A stretch of 52,624 nucleotides of DNA from Candidatus Dojkabacteria bacterium (lineage in GTDB: Bacteria > Patescibacteriota > Dojkabacteria > JAHIVN01): assembly GCA_016932045.1 (NCBI GenBank), contig JAFGDO010000011.1, positions 71,997 through 124,620 on the forward strand, given 5' to 3'. Below the pieces are notes generated by a model. That model did no database searches. It saw only the letters and a program-made list of their open reading frames with translations, and was not told where the DNA came from. Position 1 is the stretch's first letter. Each line of letters begins with the position of its first letter. Positions 4,244-52,624 of this stretch are shown here, one piece after another. Position numbers and translations under genes: made by a program.

Positions 4244-4312
4244 AATTGTGTTTTTACAATTTTAGATAACACTTCTGGGGTTGTTTTAGAGTTTTAGGGT
4301 AACAGCCTTCGT

Positions 4313-30275: not shown

Positions 30276-30391
30276 GTATAGACATTATACCAAGTAAATG
30301 AAATAATGACCTCCTGCCCCATAGTATGACTTAGCTCGTATAAATATGATATAATGCAAGGGTTGTCGATATATCTATTATATACTTTAGC

Positions 30392-42268: not shown

Positions 42269-42841
42269 CTATATGCTTTTCTTAACTTGCTTGCTTACAA
42301 AGGACAAGATACCACTCTGCAGTATGCTTGATTTGTCTGAAGAGTATTTATTCAGCGAGGAGATATTCTCAAGATCTTTGCGTGGAGGTACTTTTGGTTC
42401 TTCATCTGGATAACCCAGTGCTATAAGACCCAATACTTTTATTTCTTTTGGAATATTTAAAACACTCTTTACTCTACTCTCATCAAATGCCCCAACAAAG
42501 CATGTACCAAGACCAAGTGAATATGCTTCAAGCATGATATTTTGACTTGCAAGCGAACCATTTATAACAGCCCATCTGTCTTTTGATTCATCTACACATA
42601 CAACAGTTACTGCTGGAGCATTCTGAACTGGTCCTGAGAATGGCTTATTTGCCAAATCTTTCTTGATACAAGGATCGTTTACAACTATAAAGTGCCATGA
42701 TTGCCTATTTACTGCAGATGGCGCCCAGCGTGCAGCTTCCAGAACTCTGTTGATTAAATCTTGGGAAACTTGTTTATTTTTGTATTTTCGGATACTCCTT
42801 CGCGCTTTGATAATGTTTAGAATGTCTTTTTGATCTTTCAT
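42269..42841 (-). CDS. Nitroreductase family protein
   Basis: IIKARRSIRKYKNKQV...APSAVNRQSWHFIVV...G...ALGYP pattern. Confidence 0.85.
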   Translation of the reverse strand: MKDQKDILNIIKARRSIRKYKNKQVSQDLINRVLEAARWAPSAVNRQSWHFIVVNDPCIKKDLANKPFSGPVQNAPAVTVVCVDESKDRWAVINGSLASQNIMLEAYSLGLGTCFVGAFDESRVKSVLNIPKEIKVLGLIALGYPDEEPKVPPRKDLENISSLNKYSSDKSSILQSGILSFVSKQVKKSI

Positions 42842-42878: not shown

Positions 42879-45800
42879 CTAATCAGGTTTTGGCAATTGG
42901 CGCTTGTATCTTGGATGCCTTATCCTTCTTAGTACTGTACCTTCAATCTGTCGTATTCTTTCTCTTGTCAAGCCATGTAAAGTAGCTATCTCTTCAAGTG
43001 TGTAAACTTGACCGTCAAGTAGGCCAAATCTTCTAAGAATGATATCTTGATCACGCTCTGAAAGGTGAAGATCGGCGATAATTTCCATTAACTTATCTGC
43101 AAGCAGTGAATGCTCAACTGGAACCAGCGGATTTGAGGTGTCGTCTTCTATTCTATCTGCTATTTCGTCGGCATCGGGTTCATCGCTCAAAGGAGTGCTT
43201 AGTGATATTTCGTCTCGGACCGTCATCGCTTCTATCACCTTTTGGAGAAGTCTCTTGTATCTCTTTAGTACTTCGGGGGGGCAAGGTTCGACTTCGAGCA
43301 TCATACGGTCTTCGTGAGGTAATAGTTCGTGGGTAATCTCTTCAGGAGTAGGCATACGTCCGGGTTGAGCTAATCGTCTCATGGTACTATATACTCTTCT
43401 GTTAAAAGTTTGCCTGTGGACAGGTATCCTGATATTTCGAGAATGATTTGCCATAAATCGGTTGACGTGTTGTACTATCCACCAAGTAGCATATGTAGAC
43501 ACTCTTCCCATAGGGGTAGCACTTCCTTCAATAGTAGGATCAAATCTATCAAGAGCTTTTAATAATCCGAGATAACCTTCTTGTAAGATATCAAGAAATT
43601 CAACTTCTCTATCCGACTTCCAGTATGCTTGCAGGGCAGGAGACCAGGCAAGTCGCATATTCGACCGGAAAAGCCTTGTCTTTGCACTAGTATCCCCGGC
43701 AGCCATTCTGATAAGCAAAATTGTTTCTGCTTCTTGACTCAGCATTGGGTATTCAATAGCTGCTTGCCTTGCTAGTCTATCTAAATCAAGTGCCGGCAAA
43801 TTTGCAGTGTCTGCCATTAGTGCTTCTGTTTCCTTCGATGCTTCTTGAAGTGCCGGCGCAAATGAATCAGGGTCCATAGCATCAACAGAAAGCAGAGGGA
43901 GGTATTTTGAAGGTATCTCGACTGCTCTAACAAAGCCTTCTCCATTAAATATACTAACAACGGAAGTATTTCCTGCTGAAACTACCGTCAAATGCTTTGT
44001 CCATGGCTTTTCTTCTCCTTCTAAATAATCTGCATAACTAAGGAGTTCCATGTGTCTTTCCCAAAAAAAACCGCGAGCCTCGGTAGGCAGAACTCCGCTA
44101 TGTTCTAATTCAAGTCTTAAGGAATGCTTGATTCCAGGTTTAGAAGAAGTTGTGCCGTATAACAGGGTGATAAGAGTCTGAGATTGACCTCTTGTTAGTC
44201 TAGTAACTAGTTCACCCGAAATAGAGAAAACAGCTAGTATGTTTTCTCGAAGATGGTATACTCCTGTCGCAGTTCTAAATTGATGTATGTTTTCGGTTTC
44301 ATCAAGATAAGTTACAACTCTAAAACGACCTAAATTATCTGACATTATATGACCCGGCAGTGGGTAGGGAATGCCTAGTTTTCTTTGAAGACCATCAAGG
44401 GCGTTCCTCACGAGGTATAGTCCCTCTCTTTGGTCGTCAGGCGTAAGAATCTCGGATATCATTTCATTGTAGTGAACCCAACCATGATCGTTCTGTGTAT
44501 TCTGAAGCAAACAATGTAGAGCCTGTGCCTCTGCAGTTGTAAGTTGGACATATCTGTCATGGCCATCAAAAAATTCAACATAAAGTATATTTTTGTCCGC
44601 AATTATAAAACTTCTCACGGATCCGAATGGAGAGTGTGCGTAGAAGACACGGGCCTCTCTCCCTGTGCATTCCCATCTTGCTGGATTCAAGCGGAAAGTT
44701 CTAGTTACATGATCAGGTGAAAAGAGTGGTTGTTCTCTAGCGTCTCTACCAAGTCTGTCTTCAAGTCGATTTAACATATATATAATTTTTTCCCAGGCTG
44801 ATTTGCGATGTTCTTTTGATACTTCGTCAGGATATAACACTTCATATACTCTATCTAGGCGAATAGGATTTCCTTTAGCTCTCAAAAGTATCTCAAGCAG
44901 GCAAAGTTCTCTCTGAGTTAATTGGACTACATTTCTTCCAATGGTTGCAGTTACACGATCTCTATTTAAATGTACGGCATAGGCATCTCCCTGAGGTTCG
45001 CTCAAATATTCCACATCAACTGATTGTTTGCCATGGAGATATTTTAGACTTGCAATAACTGCCAGAAAGGTAAATGCAGAAACTTGTGCTTCAGACATTT
45101 CGTACGCTTTCATTATGTCTGAGGCTTTTAGTCCTGCTGCACGCTTTTCGGCGATTTCCCATGCGTATTGTTCTGCGATGGTCCACCCAGGTCCAGGTCT
45201 TCCACTGAAGTGAAGATGGCGATTCTGCAGGTAGCTTGTCATGTTTAGGCCTGAAAGATTAAGTTCATTCCTGACTTCGGCATAACTTGGAAAGTAATAT
45301 GCGACAACTGAGTGTTCAGTTTGGAGGAAGAATTTAAACATAGAATTTTTTCCGATGCCAATTTCAGAACCTATGGTTCTTATAGCTGCACCCTGTATCC
45401 TTTGTCTTATCGCGAATGATCTTTGACCATAGGGTACTCTTGCAAATACTGGAGCTTGGTGTGGTTTTGCTGCAAGATATCTTGTAAGACAAACACTAAA
45501 TGGTATAGGGTCATGATCTGAGTAAGCAAGTGTTCTGGACCAAAGCCGGTATCTGCAATTACTTTCTTTAAATGCTTCGTTTCCTTGATTTTCTTGACAT
45601 GCGTAATAAAGTACTAGATCTCTGAATTCTCTTCTGAAAGGACATTCTCCATAAAATTCTTGACCTAGTGCGACTCTTCTTAATGCTACAAATTGTGCTA
45701 AGAATTTAGCTTGGGTCATGCCGAGTTCATGAAAATCAGCTATTAGGGCATCAAAATCGTAAGAAGTGTATGCTTCAAGAACGGCAAGCTGTAAAGGATT

Positions 45801-46709
45801 GAGATAGGGTGGCCTTTCTGTATCTCTGTATCTTGCCTTAACATCTGCAACAACTTCAGCTAATAGTTCTCTTTCTTGGGCTAGTTCGATCATGTTTTCT
45901 GCAAGAAATAAGTGGGTTCTGGTTTTAGGATAAACTGGAAATACTAAGTCTGTAGGTGAAGCTTCTTCTCTTGCGGATAGAATATCTTTGAGTACGTATA
46001 AAGATACGAAAGCAACTCTTCTTACAACTCCAGTACTTGCTACTATATCTAGTTGCTCAGCAGCATGACTAAAGTTGTGTCCCTCAAGAAATATCAGCCT
46101 GACAAGTTCTATAGCAGCTTCAGGATCTACATCCAGGATCTTTCCCTGGTTGGCAAGTGGGCTTCTGAATTCGCATAAAACTGCTGCCCAACATTGGTAG
46201 ATCTCTGAGGAAGGATCAAATGCCTCAACATTTTCTGAAAGAACTTCTTGATACATTCTTTGAAATCTTGTCCTAGCTTCAGCCCCATAGATCCGAAGAG
46301 CCCTTCGCGTGCAGTTTCCTTGCGAGTAACCAAAGTACTCTGCCGTTTGAGGATCAGCAAGAATAAGTAGGTCGCGCACTAAGGTAGCAAGACCATTTAC
46401 ATTTGTTTCTTCAAAAGTAGGAAGCATCACCACAATGTCTTGCAAACGATATCCTTCAAAAAGATAAAGTCTTGCCATATGCATGATTTCTTGTGCACTA
46501 AAACGTGATTCTCTTCCGAGTCGTGCACTTGTTAGCGCTATATCTATTTGAATAAGAGGTGTTAGGTGGGCAGCCACTCTGTCCCAGGCTAGTTCATTTG
46601 GACAACAGGCATGGACAAATTGACGCATTCGTGTCATACGTGTAAATCTTTCTGGGGCAAATTCTTGAGGGGCGGTGCCTTCTTGTTGCGGATTTATTTC
46701 TTCTTCCAT
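42879..46709 (-). CDS. 1,276-aa Lys-poor protein: poly-HTH/OmpR-like wHTH N-terminal region fused to a complete sigma-70 domain
   Basis: The C-terminal ~288 aa contain [47 protein letters not shown] and [31 protein letters not shown]. Upstream are Trans_reg_C-like modules ([35 protein letters not shown]...). Confidence 0.75.
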   Translation of the reverse strand: [1276 protein letters not shown]

Positions 46710-46830
46710 GAATTAGGTACACTATGGGATTATAGCATTATATGGGGGGAATATAAATAAGCAACAACGGTTTAAACTCCTGAAAAACAAAGTTTTTTTT
46801 TGTAATTCGGGCATAATTAACTACTTTGTA

Positions 46831-48897
46831 TTACCTTGCTCTTGGCCGTGCCGACAAAACTTTTGCTGTTTCAGTTAAGGCCGTAGTAATTTTTGATCGT
46901 AGTGCAAGTGTTGATTCTCTATCAGTAATCATATGAGCTACCTGCCTTCCCGAGTACCCCTGTAATATCGTGAATAATATAAACTGTGCTACCGGGAAAA
47001 AACTTCCTTGAGCCAAGTTACTGCAAGCTATTTCCAGTGCCAAGTCATTTCCTCTTGCTAATCCCTTTTGTGAATGACTAGAGGTGCTATTCTTTGACCT
47101 TTTCGTACGATAAGTAATGTGTATAAAAGCTTGTTGTATCTTTTTATAGTATTTAGGATCTTGAGGGGATACTACTAGTTCTTCAAGTTTTTCTGGACTT
47201 GTTTTTAAGGCAACAGCTAATCTCCTTCTGTCAATAGGATTTGCTATCCCAGAACAGACTGCTTCAACTATTAAATATGTAGTTAAATGACTTAGGGTTT
47301 GAGGATGCAAATTTAAAGCTTTTGCGACAGATTGCTTCTCTCTTGTTTTTCCCTGTGCATCCTCTGCAGTGAGTAACTCTATAACGGGAGATATTCTGCC
47401 TTCGATTAGTCCTATGTCAAGTAACATTTCAGTAGAAACTATTCTATCTCTATAGGCTAGGCCGAGTCTAACATCTTTCAAAGTCACTGCCTCTGTCTTT
47501 TCTAGTATAACGGCAGCTAGTTTTGAGCAAACTGAAGAACTTAGTCCAGTTTGGAGAAATGGAAATTTTTCCGTAAGTGTTATTGGGAAATACTGGCAGC
47601 AAAGTTGTGATTGAGCTACTAAGTGAGCGAATTCTGCTCTTTCAAGTGCTTTATATCTTTCACTTACACTATAGTCTCCTGTTTGGAGTTCTTCAACTAT
47701 ATTTACTCGTAATTGTGTTAAAAATCTTAAGTAGAATTCGAGTTCTGATCTAAATGCAAAAACTGCTCTCCACTGTTCTTCTTGCTCAAGTTGATGAAAT
47801 TCAGCAAGTCTTTCTTCTACCTGCTGTAAATCCCAGTATGCCTCAATTTCAGCAAATGTGCAAGCTGTGACTGGAATTTCTCCTTCAAGGCCGGCTATTG
47901 TAAAGGGGGTTAATGGGTAATCAGGGTCTTCAAGTGAGCTTTCTAAAGCTTCAAGTCTATCATAAAAAAATGGGGATTCGTGAGCTTGCATTATATATCT
48001 TACAATATGGTCCATGCGGTTGCGGAATGCGTTCCAGTGTATGCCAGATTTATTCTCTAAGGCGAAAAAGGAATCCCGTGTTTCTTGATCATTTATACCA
48101 TAATATAGTCTTACAGCTGCGTCGTAAGTCATATCAGTCCCTGGAATAGTTATTGCTTGAAGAAAATGTCTATCTCTTTCGGGTAGATATAAGTATGCCA
48201 GAACGATAGTGCGCTGATTTTGGATATCAGCTACTCTGTAAGGATAATTTGTAACGCCCTCTCCCCTATAAACCTCATTGTATTCTTCAGGGTCTACATC
48301 CCATTCCCCAAGTGCTGCAAGAGCAAGAGCATAATCAGATACTTTTTCATTTGGATTTATTCTATCCATCTTTGACTTTAGCGTTATTATTAAAGAAAGA
48401 CGGTATGTTTCTAGTCCTTCGTAAGCTCCAAGCTCTATAAGTGCGGTATAAACCATTATGGACTGTATAGCGAGGCATGCTATTCTGTGGTGGGCAGAAT
48501 ATTCTCTTTTTTCGGTCCTTCTTTGTGAGCAAATGTATATATAGGATAACTCATTTTCTGCCCAGGTTGCTAAGCCTGAAGCAACTTCTTCCGGAGTTTC
48601 CCTTCTTTCTGATACTTGATTTGAATATTTTTCACCAACACTGATTAGTACATCAGTCATAGCCTCAATAAATCTATGAGGCGTTCCCTCTCTTTCTCTT
48701 CTTGCGTGACTTAAATTTACCTCTGAATCTGGAACCTCTCTTCCAATTGCCTTGCCGATAAGTATCTGAGTATGAGGCATGCACCAGGCGGCCTGAAGTG
48801 AAGTTACCTCTCTTGCTAGTAGTTCCTGTGCTGCAGAGGATACTTCTGCAGTTTGTGTAATTGAAGGCTCAAATTCTGGGGTGGATATATACGTCAT
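46831..48897 (-). CDS. 688-aa Lys-poor multi-HTH protein (sigma region-4/LuxR-like segments)
   Basis: LYLPERDRHFLQAI...GIHWNAFRNRMDHIVRYI; KQSVAKALNLHPQTLSHLTTYL; ILQGYSGRQVAHMITDRESTLALRSKITTAL. Confidence 0.55.
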   Translation of the reverse strand: MTYISTPEFEPSITQTAEVSSAAQELLAREVTSLQAAWCMPHTQILIGKAIGREVPDSEVNLSHARREREGTPHRFIEAMTDVLISVGEKYSNQVSERRETPEEVASGLATWAENELSYIYICSQRRTEKREYSAHHRIACLAIQSIMVYTALIELGAYEGLETYRLSLIITLKSKMDRINPNEKVSDYALALAALGEWDVDPEEYNEVYRGEGVTNYPYRVADIQNQRTIVLAYLYLPERDRHFLQAITIPGTDMTYDAAVRLYYGINDQETRDSFFALENKSGIHWNAFRNRMDHIVRYIMQAHESPFFYDRLEALESSLEDPDYPLTPFTIAGLEGEIPVTACTFAEIEAYWDLQQVEERLAEFHQLEQEEQWRAVFAFRSELEFYLRFLTQLRVNIVEELQTGDYSVSERYKALERAEFAHLVAQSQLCCQYFPITLTEKFPFLQTGLSSSVCSKLAAVILEKTEAVTLKDVRLGLAYRDRIVSTEMLLDIGLIEGRISPVIELLTAEDAQGKTREKQSVAKALNLHPQTLSHLTTYLIVEAVCSGIANPIDRRRLAVALKTSPEKLEELVVSPQDPKYYKKIQQAFIHITYRTKRSKNSTSSHSQKGLARGNDLALEIACSNLAQGSFFPVAQFILFTILQGYSGRQVAHMITDRESTLALRSKITTALTETAKVLSARPRAR

Positions 48898-50637: not shown

Positions 50638-50734
50638 TAATTATGGATATATGAATATTATATAAGCAACCAATTATACTATGGGTTTGTACTGTAATCA
50701 AATTTATACTAGGAGGTAAACATGTCCTATAGTA

Positions 50735-51583
50735 TTGATTGTAGATACCAAAAATGGTATAATTATCCGTGTTTATAAAACTTCTAAATCCGCTAAAATT
50801 CCTTTATTTCCAGCCTATATTTATACAAGAGACTATTTAAATTGTGTAAATAAAGGAATGAAAATAAAGGCAAATCTTACAATCCACTTAAAACGTGGAA
50901 GAATAAATGTTATCAAGAGAACCTTTAAATTGAACAAGGTTATACGTCCTACATATATTACACTTGGATTCTTTAAGTTGCTTATTATCCTACTTTTTGA
51001 TGCAATTCTTATATTAAATAATCTTCCAACTCCTAAAGTGCAGTCCTTTGAAGAGGCTTATTTTGCCCGAGCTAATGTAGAAGATATTTATCTTGAATCA
51101 ATAAAATATGCAGAGAGCAAGATGACTGAAGAAGCAGATGAAGAAAGCCCCGATATGGACATAGTAAGAAACGGAAAAATTGGGAGAATTCTACTCGGAG
51201 ATAAGTATAAAAAACTGGCTGGAAGCTACTATTATCCAAATGTTGAAAAATATCTGCCTATCGTTGATAAAGTATTAAGCGAAAAGGGACTCGATCAAAA
51301 TTCTTTGTTTATTCAGGCTATGTTTTTCATTGGGCAACGAGAAAGTCATTGGCAAACAGGTTCCGTAAGTGGTGCTACATATGGTGGTGAGAATGCAGTT
51401 GGTATATTTCAATTTCTTCCAAGTACTTTTAGAAGCGTTTCAAGAGGAAATATTTATAGTGCAGAAGATCAGGTAAGAGCTTTTGTAACGATGGTCGAGC
51501 GAGGAAGAGTCAGAGAATTTGGGACTCTTTATCTACCAGGCATCAATTCTCGGGCTAAACAGTATGTGTTGAACTATAGGTAA
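50735..51583 (+). CDS. Membrane-anchored lysozyme-like / lytic transglycosylase-like protein
   Basis: QRESHWQ...AVGIFQFLPSTF resembles the SLT E-S...G-L-M-Q...S-x-F core. The track start is TTG; the ATG at 50858 (MKIKANL) is a plausible true start. Confidence 0.5.
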   Translation: MIVDTKNGIIIRVYKTSKSAKIPLFPAYIYTRDYLNCVNKGMKIKANLTIHLKRGRINVIKRTFKLNKVIRPTYITLGFFKLLIILLFDAILILNNLPTPKVQSFEEAYFARANVEDIYLESIKYAESKMTEEADEESPDMDIVRNGKIGRILLGDKYKKLAGSYYYPNVEKYLPIVDKVLSEKGLDQNSLFIQAMFFIGQRESHWQTGSVSGATYGGENAVGIFQFLPSTFRSVSRGNIYSAEDQVRAFVTMVERGRVREFGTLYLPGINSRAKQYVLNYR

Positions 51584-51614: not shown

Positions 51615-51670
51615 AATTAAGAATTAAAAATTGAGAATGAAGAATTAATAATTAAGAGTTGAGAATTAGG
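51615..51670. repeat. 7-nt periodic tract, 8 units, consensus AATTRAG
   Basis: aattaag aattaaa aattgag aatgaag aattaat aattaag agttgag aattagg. Confidence 0.85.
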
Positions 51671-51719: not shown

Positions 51720-52283
51720 ATGTCGGAAACAAGAACCGAACAGCATGGATTAACCCCAAGAGGTAGACAAGTACTTGCAGGAGCTTTAATAGCTGCTGCA
51801 ATAGTGCTGACAGCATGTACCTCACCTATTCCTAAAATTGTTGAAGCTACTCCTACTACAGTTGGCACTTGTATACCTATTGAGCTAGTTGCACAGTTTC
51901 CTGATGGACCGGGACCTATGGAGATATTTCTACCCCCGGCAGTAGAGGGGAACGATGTGAGTTACTATGTCTTTGTGGTATGGAATGTGATGGAATGGAG
52001 TGAAGCTACAGGAGAAAAAGGGACAATCTTTGTAGAAGAAGTCGGATCTGGAGGTAGGACTCTTTCAGTCATTGGTGGTCTTACTATTTTAAGTGATTTT
52101 CAGGCTTGTACTGATCTTTCAAGTGCTCAAAGAGCAGCGGGACGGATGTTTAAAGAATTGGAAGAAGATGAAAATACAGATCCTTCAGGTGGTATTGAAG
52201 TTAATGGGTACGAGCAATTTCTTGAAGAATTCCAAATAATTCCTCCAAAGTTGCCTGAACCTGTTCCGCTTGATCAGGCTTAA
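51720..52283 (+). CDS. Lys-poor putative lipoprotein
   Basis: Signal plus lipobox RQVLAGALIAAAIVLTAC. TGATATAAT, with TATAAT at 51676-51681, 38 nt upstream. Confidence 0.6.
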   Translation: MSETRTEQHGLTPRGRQVLAGALIAAAIVLTACTSPIPKIVEATPTTVGTCIPIELVAQFPDGPGPMEIFLPPAVEGNDVSYYVFVVWNVMEWSEATGEKGTIFVEEVGSGGRTLSVIGGLTILSDFQACTDLSSAQRAAGRMFKELEEDENTDPSGGIEVNGYEQFLEEFQIIPPKLPEPVPLDQA

Positions 52284-52374: not shown

Positions 52375-52516
52375 GGAGAGATGGCAGAGTGGTCTGCGCC
52401 CAAGGCGCATCCGCCTAGGGCGGAGAATGGGACGGTCTTGTTCAATGACACCGCTTTGTGGGGGAATTAATCCGCCGAATTCTGAATTTATCGAAGAAGA
52501 AGGCGGAAAAACCGTT
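52375..52516 (+). pseudogene. Partial 5' duplicate of tRNA-Ser (positions ~1-43) interrupted by two hairpin-bearing insertions
   Basis: Blocks 52375-52394 (19/20), 52425-52440 (16/16) and 52508-52516 (9/9) match the intact tRNA at 52535. They are separated by insertions at 52395-52424 and 52441-52507. No T-arm or 3' acceptor follows. Confidence 0.5.
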
Positions 52517-52534: not shown

Positions 52535-52624
52535 GGAGAGATGCCAGAGTGGTCGAATGGGACGGTCTTGAAAACCGTTGTACCTTTCGGGGTACCGGGG
52601 GTTCGAATCCCTCTCTCTCCGCCA
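52535..52624 (+). tRNA. tRNA-Ser (anticodon UGA), class II long variable arm, CCA encoded
   Basis: GGAGAGA/UCUCUCC acceptor, ACGGU-CUUGAAA-ACCGU anticodon arm, variable arm GUACC-UUUCGG-GGUAC, T-arm GGGGG-UUCGAAU-CCCUC, then G-CCA. Confidence 0.9.

Follow-up and report, generated by a model that had tools for sequence, protein, structure and literature searches.

Domain organization of a giant sigma-70-family protein

Why would a bacterial sigma factor carry almost a thousand residues of folded domains in front of its sigma-70 module, and what might they do there? The question is raised by a gene on the minus strand of a 52,624-nucleotide stretch of contig JAFGDO010000011.1, from a Candidatus Dojkabacteria bacterium (the whole stretch that was analysed, called the window below). 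A first-pass annotation of the window had described one uninterrupted open reading frame (ORF) in which a complete sigma-70 module follows helix-turn-helix (HTH)-like and OmpR-like modules. The ORF listing gave an unbroken frame of 1,276 codons, from ATG start to stop, exactly at 42879-46709 on the minus strand, with all of the previously quoted peptide strings in its translation, and profile searches, structure prediction and fold comparison agree on the architecture. The product is an intact, conserved sigma-70-family factor of Patescibacteria (the candidate phyla radiation, CPR), in this case of an uncultured bacterium. Its extension of approximately 985 residues takes the place normally held by region 1.1, a small acidic domain through which primary sigma factors are autoinhibited. 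The parts of the gene are as follows, with the evidence for each in brackets (pLDDT, predicted local distance difference test).

42879-46709, minus strand: giant sigma factor, complete ORF of 1,276 residues, stop codon at 42879-42881 (ORF listing, identical protein elsewhere, collinear homologues)
46635-46709, minus strand: residues 1-25, acidic disordered N-terminal tail (pLDDT 30-35; net charge -4)
45039-46634, minus strand: residues 26-557, compact all-alpha N-block with five HTH-like three-helix units (AlphaFold2, Foldseek, Pfam on orthologues)
44685-44987, minus strand: residues 575-675, winged-helix module 1 of OmpR/PhoB (Trans_reg_C) type (sub-threshold Pfam match, family profile, AlphaFold2, Foldseek)
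44316-44675, minus strand: residues 679-798, winged-helix module 2 of OmpR/PhoB type with an extended N-terminal beta-sheet (module-2 profile; AlphaFold2 pLDDT about 85-90)
44052-44288, minus strand: residues 808-886, degenerate winged-helix-like module 3, a beta-sheet with two to three helices (AlphaFold2 secondary structure only)
43887-43991, minus strand: residues 907-941, small domain of a three-stranded beta-sheet and a helix (AlphaFold2 pLDDT about 60-70; alignment with the short homologues P0009 and P0031)
43755-43886, minus strand: residues 942-985, acidic disordered linker (pLDDT below 50; net charge -6 over 35 residues)
42882-43754, minus strand: residues 986-1276, sigma-70 module with regions 2.1-2.4 and 4.1-4.2 and, by alignment, regions 1.2 and 3 (Pfam, NCBIfam, SigA structure alignment, lineage alignment)

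Integrity and conservation of the gene

The contig is of the metagenome type and the junction at residues 942-985 is of low complexity, features that would fit an artefact of assembly, two genes fused by a frameshift or a pseudogene. This explanation is effectively refuted by three observations. An identical protein with the same neighbours is present in an independent Logan assembly (SRR13394437), three more homologues from different samples, all full-length or nearly so, stay collinear across the junction, and the join between the small beta domain and the sigma module is also present in short forms of the lineage. The chimeric join that had been a worry in the first-pass annotation is thereby excluded, and the orthologous fusions about which it had asked do exist. 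One of them, P0002 (1,242 residues), is collinear with the window protein at 33% identity and 98% coverage, with the conservation spread over the N-terminal ~985 residues and the sigma junction. Homologues in other Patescibacteria contigs are likewise collinear, with 28-44% identity over the N-terminal extension.

Public databases carry these proteins under a generic sigma-70 name. For example, the only name that NCBI gives to P0003 (MEA3357608.1) is 'sigma-70 family RNA polymerase sigma factor [Patescibacteria group bacterium]', and the family was placed in the CPR because this record reads Patescibacteria group bacterium. The window itself is ordinary bacterial chromosome, encoding RecG, RelA/SpoT, tyrosyl-tRNA synthetase (TyrRS) and inositol-3-phosphate synthase. 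The gene's G + C content varies with that of the contig that carries it, in backgrounds ranging between 27% and 40%; therefore, the gene looks native in diverse lineages and not recently imported.

The sigma-70 module

The C-terminal sigma-70 signatures that had been noticed earlier were recovered by profile and structure comparison. Pfam matches above the cut-off were obtained for Sigma70_r2 (PF04542) on residues 1014-1091 (30.1 bits; cut-off, 24) and for Sigma70_r4 (PF04545) on residues 1215-1265 (47.2 bits; cut-off, 24.1), and the NCBIfam model RpoD_Cterm aligned with residues 1009-1272 over its positions 1-233 of 238 (E value, 3e-47). The best matches of the module in the PDB were primary SigA/RpoD factors, namely SigA of C. 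difficile, S. aureus and B. subtilis (E values of approximately 1e-42 to 4e-44). These structures align from region 1.2 through region 4.2 with a gap in region 3, and the Pfam models r1_2 and r3 were not reported at E ≤ 0.1. Of the Pfam models that had been proposed for checking the annotation, Sigma70_r2 and Sigma70_r4 therefore pass, whereas Sigma70_r3 is not reported at that level and Trans_reg_C, discussed below, stays under its threshold. The module is 37-41% identical to primary sigma factors and keeps the canonical motifs YATWW(I) of region 2.3, IRIPVH, and TRERIRQIE of region 4.2. It is expected to bind core RNA polymerase and to recognise -10/-35-type elements.

The resemblance to primary SigA/RpoD across regions 1.2-4.2, the retention of YATWW, IRIPVH and TRERIRQIE, and the lack of any other sigma gene within the 52-kb window would all be expected if these CPR bacteria used the protein as their housekeeping (primary) sigma factor and had expanded its N-terminus in a lineage-specific way. 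Long N-termini are found in actinobacterial HrdB, to which such an expansion could be compared. We consider this improbable, however, as the RpoD equivalog cut-offs were missed by a wide margin (TIGR02393, 161 bits against 354; NF006666, 176 bits against 572). Because the scores are so far below these cut-offs, the window protein is a divergent sigma factor with a group-1-like domain composition and not an orthodox RpoD. The lineage alignment contains a lineage-specific insertion of approximately 5-8 residues between regions 2.2 and 2.3 (consensus, TxxGxxTPMGR). Its variable motifs speak against a housekeeping role as well. Where the window protein has YATWW, other members read YATRW, YATMW, YATSR or YAHFW. 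The residues equivalent to the promoter-melting tryptophans W433/W434 vary within the lineage, as do regions 2.4 and 4.2, and the invariant promoter-melting and recognition residues are not kept across its members.

A rare and modular sigma lineage

When 1.84 billion representative proteins were searched exhaustively with a HMMER profile of the extension, only seven proteins were found to carry it, all at E ≤ 1e-41 and none weaker, and its association is exclusive to this sigma family. No relatives were found in two scans of the GTDB species representatives or in IMG/VR. A profile of the core shared by the lineage scored the two short forms at 521-590 bits and ordinary RpoDs at no more than 228 bits, in a non-exhaustive search from whose list the giants were absent; because of these scores, the sigma lineage is regarded as distinct and rare. 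The word-indexed homology searches used for the lineage and its short forms missed known giant members, so that their counts are lower bounds.

Proteins of approximately 317, 410, 844 and 1,250 residues occur in the lineage, and the N-terminal blocks are therefore modular add-ons. In P0007, a complete ORF of 844 residues, the N-block is joined straight to the sigma module without the winged-helix block. P0009 (419 residues; L010, 4313-5572) and P0031 (409 residues; from a Patescibacteria metagenome-assembled genome, MAG) consist only of the sigma module and the small beta domain, which corresponds to residues 907-941 of the window protein and is common to these short members of about 410 residues. 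Both carry the marks of the lineage, i.e., an EYPMLS motif, the insertion described above and, at the C-terminus, the motif RHPRY. The smallest form, a sigma-only paralogue of 317 residues that also has the insertion, is encoded approximately 7 kb upstream of a giant gene (L005, 1330-2283, plus strand); contigs L001 and L006, which are near-identical, lack it there.

Disrupted members were found as well. P0006 (435 residues; L004, 2988-4407) stops where the gene for an IS1595-type transposase starts, and P0005 (830 residues; L009, 54-3295), from the same metagenome (Ga0180433), begins just after such a transposase. The two are one gene for ~1,265 residues split by the insertion sequence (IS), or both assembly edges of that insertion. 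P0004 (complete ORF of 1,136 residues; L007, 10001-13411, on a 94-kb contig of MAG GCA_041890195.1) has the whole extension, a degenerate region 2 and no region 4, and nothing downstream of it rescues the missing region. The IS-interrupted copy, the member without region 4, the same-lineage paralogue ~7 kb away in one genome and the extreme rarity of the lineage are further points against a housekeeping factor. Because one copy is split, one lacks region 4 and the residues of regions 2.3, 2.4 and 4.2 are variable, the lineage probably represents an alternative, non-essential sigma factor with diverging specificity.

The winged-helix block

Two AlphaFold2 models, covering residues 1-575 and 556-980, were built from family alignments of 5-7 sequences. 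The model of residues 556-980 (pLDDT 76.6, with cores of approximately 90; predicted template modelling score, pTM, 0.66) shows a unit built from a beta-sheet, three helices and a hairpin three times in succession (residues 575-675, 679-798 and 808-886). An N-terminal beta-sheet, three helices of which alpha2 and alpha3 form the HTH, and a C-terminal hairpin wing are the defining elements of the OmpR/PhoB fold. Consistent with this, 49 of the 50 Foldseek matches listed, including the 20 best, were DNA-binding domains of the OmpR family (VanR, CovR, CadC, RitR, RpaA, YycF/VicR, PhoP, ToxR, KdpE and CpxR). The CovR DNA-binding domain was matched over all of its 96 residues (probability, 1.00; TM score, 0.80), a match at the level of the block that is not assignable to one module.

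Sequence profiles pointed in the same direction. When a family profile of residues 556-980 was compared with the PDB, each of the 24 matches was an OmpR/PhoB DNA-binding domain, the best being CovR (E value, 1.2e-4, on module 1), with ArlR, DrrD and KdpE also among them. All six matches of a module-2 profile were likewise DNA-binding domains of the OmpR family (2k4j, E value 1.6e-3; RpaA, 0.015). The LT.RE motif of helix alpha1, an OmpR-family signature, is kept in both modules, and module 2 adds a wing-like SD..G.YR. With the single window sequence, Trans_reg_C (PF00486) reached 17 bits on module 1, below the Pfam cut-off of 26.2, and its match to P0004 (22.3 bits) was also under this value. 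Run on single segments, the Pfam model recovered module 1 weakly and did not detect modules 2 and 3. No Response_reg match was found anywhere in the protein, i.e., it has no receiver domain. Overall, the block comprises two well-supported OmpR/PhoB-type modules, located where at least two OmpR-like modules had been placed at first reading (~44.3-44.95 kb), plus a third, degenerate winged-helix unit.

The N-block

The model of residues 1-575 (pLDDT 84.6; pTM 0.76) shows a compact all-alpha body after the disordered tail. Within it, five units of a helix, a short helix and a long helix are predicted at residues 72-118, 196-248, 305-347, 427-472 and 511-557, and three of the five coincide with the peptide strings that had been quoted as short HTH-like repeats. 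In orthologues, units 4 and 5 gave Pfam matches to HTH_28, HTH_23 and HTH_7, of which the HTH_28 match in P0002 (25.9 bits) is above its cut-off. The units are weakly similar to one another in register (E value, approximately 5e-4).

Foldseek returned no significant match to the N-block in the PDB (best E value, 1.2) or in the viral library BFVD (best, 0.2). Among the non-significant matches in the PDB and the viral library, sigma factors recur, including sigma-28/FlgM, WhiG, AlgU, SigH and several phage sigma factors. The N-block of approximately 530 residues is confidently predicted to adopt a fold for which no structural match was found. Structure prediction and fold comparison, which had been suggested for the N-terminal region, therefore identified the winged-helix block as OmpR-type and left the N-block without a fold match. 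There is a hint that the N-block may derive from sigma-like helical domains by duplication, but in profile-profile comparison its units reached E values of only ~0.02-0.06 with the sigma2, sigma3 and sigma4 domains of the same protein, at the HTH turn; because of these values, the idea is a lead and not a finding.

Comparison with known sigma factors and activators

Compared with group 1 and group 2 sigma-70 factors (RpoD/SigA and RpoS), the giant sigma factor has regions 2 and 4 in the canonical order, with apparent regions 1.2 and 3, the identity with primary sigma factors given above and, in the window protein, canonical motifs for reading -10/-35 elements. It differs from them in lacking region 1.1, instead of which there are ~985 residues of unrelated folded domains, and in its insertion between regions 2.2 and 2.3, its variable specificity residues and a disruption that is tolerated in at least one population. 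Modules 1 and 2 share both fold and sequence profile with the effector domains of the OmpR/PhoB family, which include the receiver-less CadC and ToxR, and by analogy their tandem head-to-tail array may recall the occupancy of direct repeats near the -35 element. Unlike members of that family, the giant sigma factor combines three copies in one receiver-less chain fused to a sigma factor, its modules fall below the Pfam cut-off and its recognition helices are not notably basic or conserved.

ECF41 and ECF42 are conceptually similar, as they are sigma factors with a covalently attached activity-modulating domain. They are minimal sigma2-sigma4 proteins, and their C-terminal extensions are not DNA-binding folds. 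In contrast, the giant sigma factor appears to have regions 1.2 and 3, and its extension, of HTH and winged-helix units, is N-terminal. The first-pass annotation knew of no such fusion, and indeed no sigma factor carrying OmpR-type domains or several HTH domains in the same chain is described in the literature searched, on CPR bacteria or elsewhere, where the sample identifiers are not used either. Both kinds of component, the OmpR-type winged helix and the sigma-70 module, are known; what is new is their combination, the size and the unmatched fold of the N-block.

A promoter-like element upstream of the gene

It had been proposed that the gene has its own TATAAT-type promoter. A promoter scan found the following site, and the related CCCATAGT sites were located in the window and in two contigs that carry homologues.

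46721-46757, minus strand: promoter-like site, TTTATA, 17-nt spacer and TG-extended TATAAT, overlapping the 14-mer TATAATCCCATAGT
46721-46734, minus strand; 50673-50685, minus strand; 30318-30330, plus strand: CCCATAGT sites in the window
4288-4303, plus strand: CCCATAGT site in L010
764-776, plus strand; 7219, plus strand; 5193, minus strand: CCCATAGT sites in L003

The sequence TGCTATAAT is a perfect extended -10 element located 19 nt before the ATG; the accompanying -35 element (TTTATA) is weak. Promoter-like matches numbered 23 in the region against 20.6 expected in shuffles, so that they are not enriched. The 14-mer TATAATCCCATAGT at 46721-46734, approximately 12-19 nt upstream of the ATG, includes TATAAT, and in L010 the gene for P0009, a distant short relative, is preceded by the identical 14-mer with no change in offset. 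Similarly, CCCATAGTATAAT is located upstream of the P0003 gene in L003 and of the gene for a 573-residue protein in the window. A cis element is accordingly conserved at the own promoter of three distant members. Four exact copies of the 8-mer are present in the window (1.05 expected); relaxed matches to CCCATAGTATAAT are not enriched, and only the exact 8-mer and its positions are notable. In most cases, CCCATAGT is followed by ATAAT or preceded by TATAAT. The proposed promoter is therefore plausible in that its 14-mer is kept in a distant relative, whereas a match to the consensus alone is not evidence. The CCCATAGT/TATAAT element may be a cognate or autoregulatory promoter element, a candidate that should be taken as a lead and not as a result. 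No direct-repeat arrays fit to serve as winged-helix targets were found near the gene cluster.

What the extension may do

To our knowledge, sigma factors and upstream activators are separate proteins in all well-studied systems. Activators of the OmpR/PhoB type bind tandem direct repeats that adjoin the -35 element or overlap with it, and make contact with region 4 of sigma, as PhoB does. From the architecture we infer DNA binding by the tandem winged helices and propose, tentatively and with little less than even confidence, that they form a built-in OmpR/PhoB-type activator that sets promoter targeting. The sigma module would bind core RNA polymerase and read -10/-35-type elements, and the head-to-tail array in the same chain would supply upstream recognition in cis by reading upstream repeats. 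The winged helices might also contact their own region 4 in cis, as PhoB does in trans, and the N-block would add further contacts with DNA or partners. The holoenzyme would thereby be restricted to a few promoters in an organism with few transcription factors. That the N-terminal blocks tune targeting, and are not part of the core sigma function, fits with the modular forms of the lineage. The fuller version of this proposal, a single-chain sigma-activator whose winged helices, possibly together with the five-HTH block, read upstream direct repeats and dock on their own region 4, is considerably more speculative, and we would hold it to be rather unlikely as a whole.

Several observations weigh against such an activator. 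No DNA target of the extension was found. Modules 1 and 2 are neutral to acidic, the net charge of module 2 being -1 to -7 in all orthologues, and orthologues show little conservation in the residues of the recognition helix (alpha3). Sequence comparison gave no significant support for HTH units 1-3 and none for module 3. In the models, the N-block and the winged-helix block each form one integrated body instead of free heads (pTM 0.76 and 0.66), and these models rest on alignments of only a handful of sequences (5-7, as stated above). Finally, P0004 retains the extension without a working sigma part.

Much of this evidence would be accommodated if the extension were instead a regulatory or protein-interaction scaffold that re-uses HTH and winged-helix folds for autoinhibition or partner docking. 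It would then do the work of region 1.1 in a much enlarged form, or that of a fused anti-sigma-like domain, with release of sigma activity by a signal, a partner or proteolysis. The neutral to acidic character extends from modules 1 and 2 to the N-tail and the linker before region 1.2, the recognition helices are variable, the compact high-pTM models have conserved inter-module junction motifs, the extension sits exactly at the site of the autoinhibitory region 1.1 of primary sigma factors, and P0004 keeps it even though the sigma part has decayed. On the other hand, modules 1 and 2 keep OmpR-family signatures (LT.RE in both and SD..G.YR in module 2), judging from orthologue charges HTH unit 4 is consistently basic and module 3 is net basic in four of five orthologues, and no partner gene is conserved beside the gene. 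We regard the scaffold as the main alternative, possible but doubtful.

The first-pass annotation had suggested that promoter choice or localisation is set by built-in DNA-binding modules. The architecture behind this suggestion stands. Its function we can only infer, because no DNA target was found, the recognition helices are variable and the modules unfavourably charged, the N-block is compact and P0004 lacks region 4.

Gene neighbourhood and other features of the window

In the window, the gene follows two orphan genes on the same strand, for proteins of 573 and 688 residues, and precedes a nitroreductase gene. The neighbours are not conserved beside the homologues, and the gene appears to stand alone. 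Features referred to in this section are listed below.

46831-48897, minus strand: orphan protein of 688 residues
48916-50637, minus strand: orphan protein of 573 residues, 18-nt gap to the preceding
42269-42841, minus strand: nitroreductase
51615-51656, plus strand: two tandem 21-nt AT-rich repeats
52375-52460, plus strand: partial copy of the 5' part of tRNA-Ser
52535-52624, plus strand: tRNA-Ser(TGA)

The two orphans gave no significant matches in Pfam, NCBIfam, PADLOC, PHROG or the PDB, have no counterpart beside the homologues and show no relation to the N-block. The 573-residue protein gave a ParB-like impression through a GFHRY motif, which was rejected as neither Pfam nor the PDB supported it. 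The G + C content of the orphan stretch is 0.39-0.42, compared with 0.37 elsewhere in the window.

A defence system or mobile element, similar to MzaA of the MZA system or to phage sigma factors, was also considered. MzaA (NF041931; PADLOC PDLC02203) is, like the giant sigma factor, a long sigma-70-family protein with a large N-terminal extension. The window protein partially matches MzaA (NCBIfam, 133 bits; PADLOC, 1.3e-22) and the phage family phrog_351, and its gene lies behind the two orphans in the slightly GC-richer stretch, ~6 kb from a tRNA-Ser gene. However, the MzaA match is confined to model positions 448-709, its 133 bits fall short of the cut-off of 800, genes for Mza partners are missing nearby, and the MzaA reading was rejected because only the sigma part is covered. 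The phrog match is likewise to the generic sigma part. PADLOC and PHROGs gave no matches beyond generic sigma ones, the neighbours had none and are not conserved, IMG/VR holds no relative and the G + C content of the gene follows that of each host. A defence or mobile-element function is thus very improbable.

A flavoprotein gene follows the giant sigma gene at two loci, the nitroreductase gene of the window and a Flavin_Reduct gene in L001 (13887-14393, plus strand). This adjacency is probably a coincidence, because the families differ and other loci have unrelated genes at this position. Near the end of the window, a partial, interrupted copy of the 5' part of tRNA-Ser lies 160 nt upstream of the tRNA-Ser(TGA) gene. 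The two share AGGAGAGATGGCAGAGTGGTC and GAATGGGACGGTCTTG, with a 30-nt insertion between these segments, and the partial copy may represent either a pseudogene of the tRNA or an old duplication of an attachment site. The tandem 21-nt repeats (AATTAAGAATTAAAAATTGAG and AATGAAGAATTAATAATTAAG) are intergenic, between the ORFs at 50735-51583 and 51720-52283.

Implications for transcription in CPR bacteria

The replacement of region 1.1 by three OmpR-type winged helices and a five-HTH domain would point to a new wiring either of promoter specificity or of sigma autoinhibition. CPR bacteria have very small regulatory repertoires, and the giant sigma factor would inform how they control their genes. 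The family is rare and confined to uncultured bacteria, yet it is testable with recombinant protein; its graded sizes form a natural series for domain accretion on a sigma factor, and the fusion of sigma factor and winged helices would offer a compact design for orthogonal synthetic transcription switches. If the proposed activator function is true, one polypeptide would supply promoter melting and upstream operator recognition together, and it would be the first sigma factor with intrinsic, modular, sequence-specific recognition of upstream DNA. The CCCATAGT/TATAAT element at its own promoter might then mark an autoregulated regulon, and the sigma-activator would have arisen by stepwise accretion, through forms of 317, ~410, 844 and ~1,250 residues, in the genome-reduced bacteria of the CPR.

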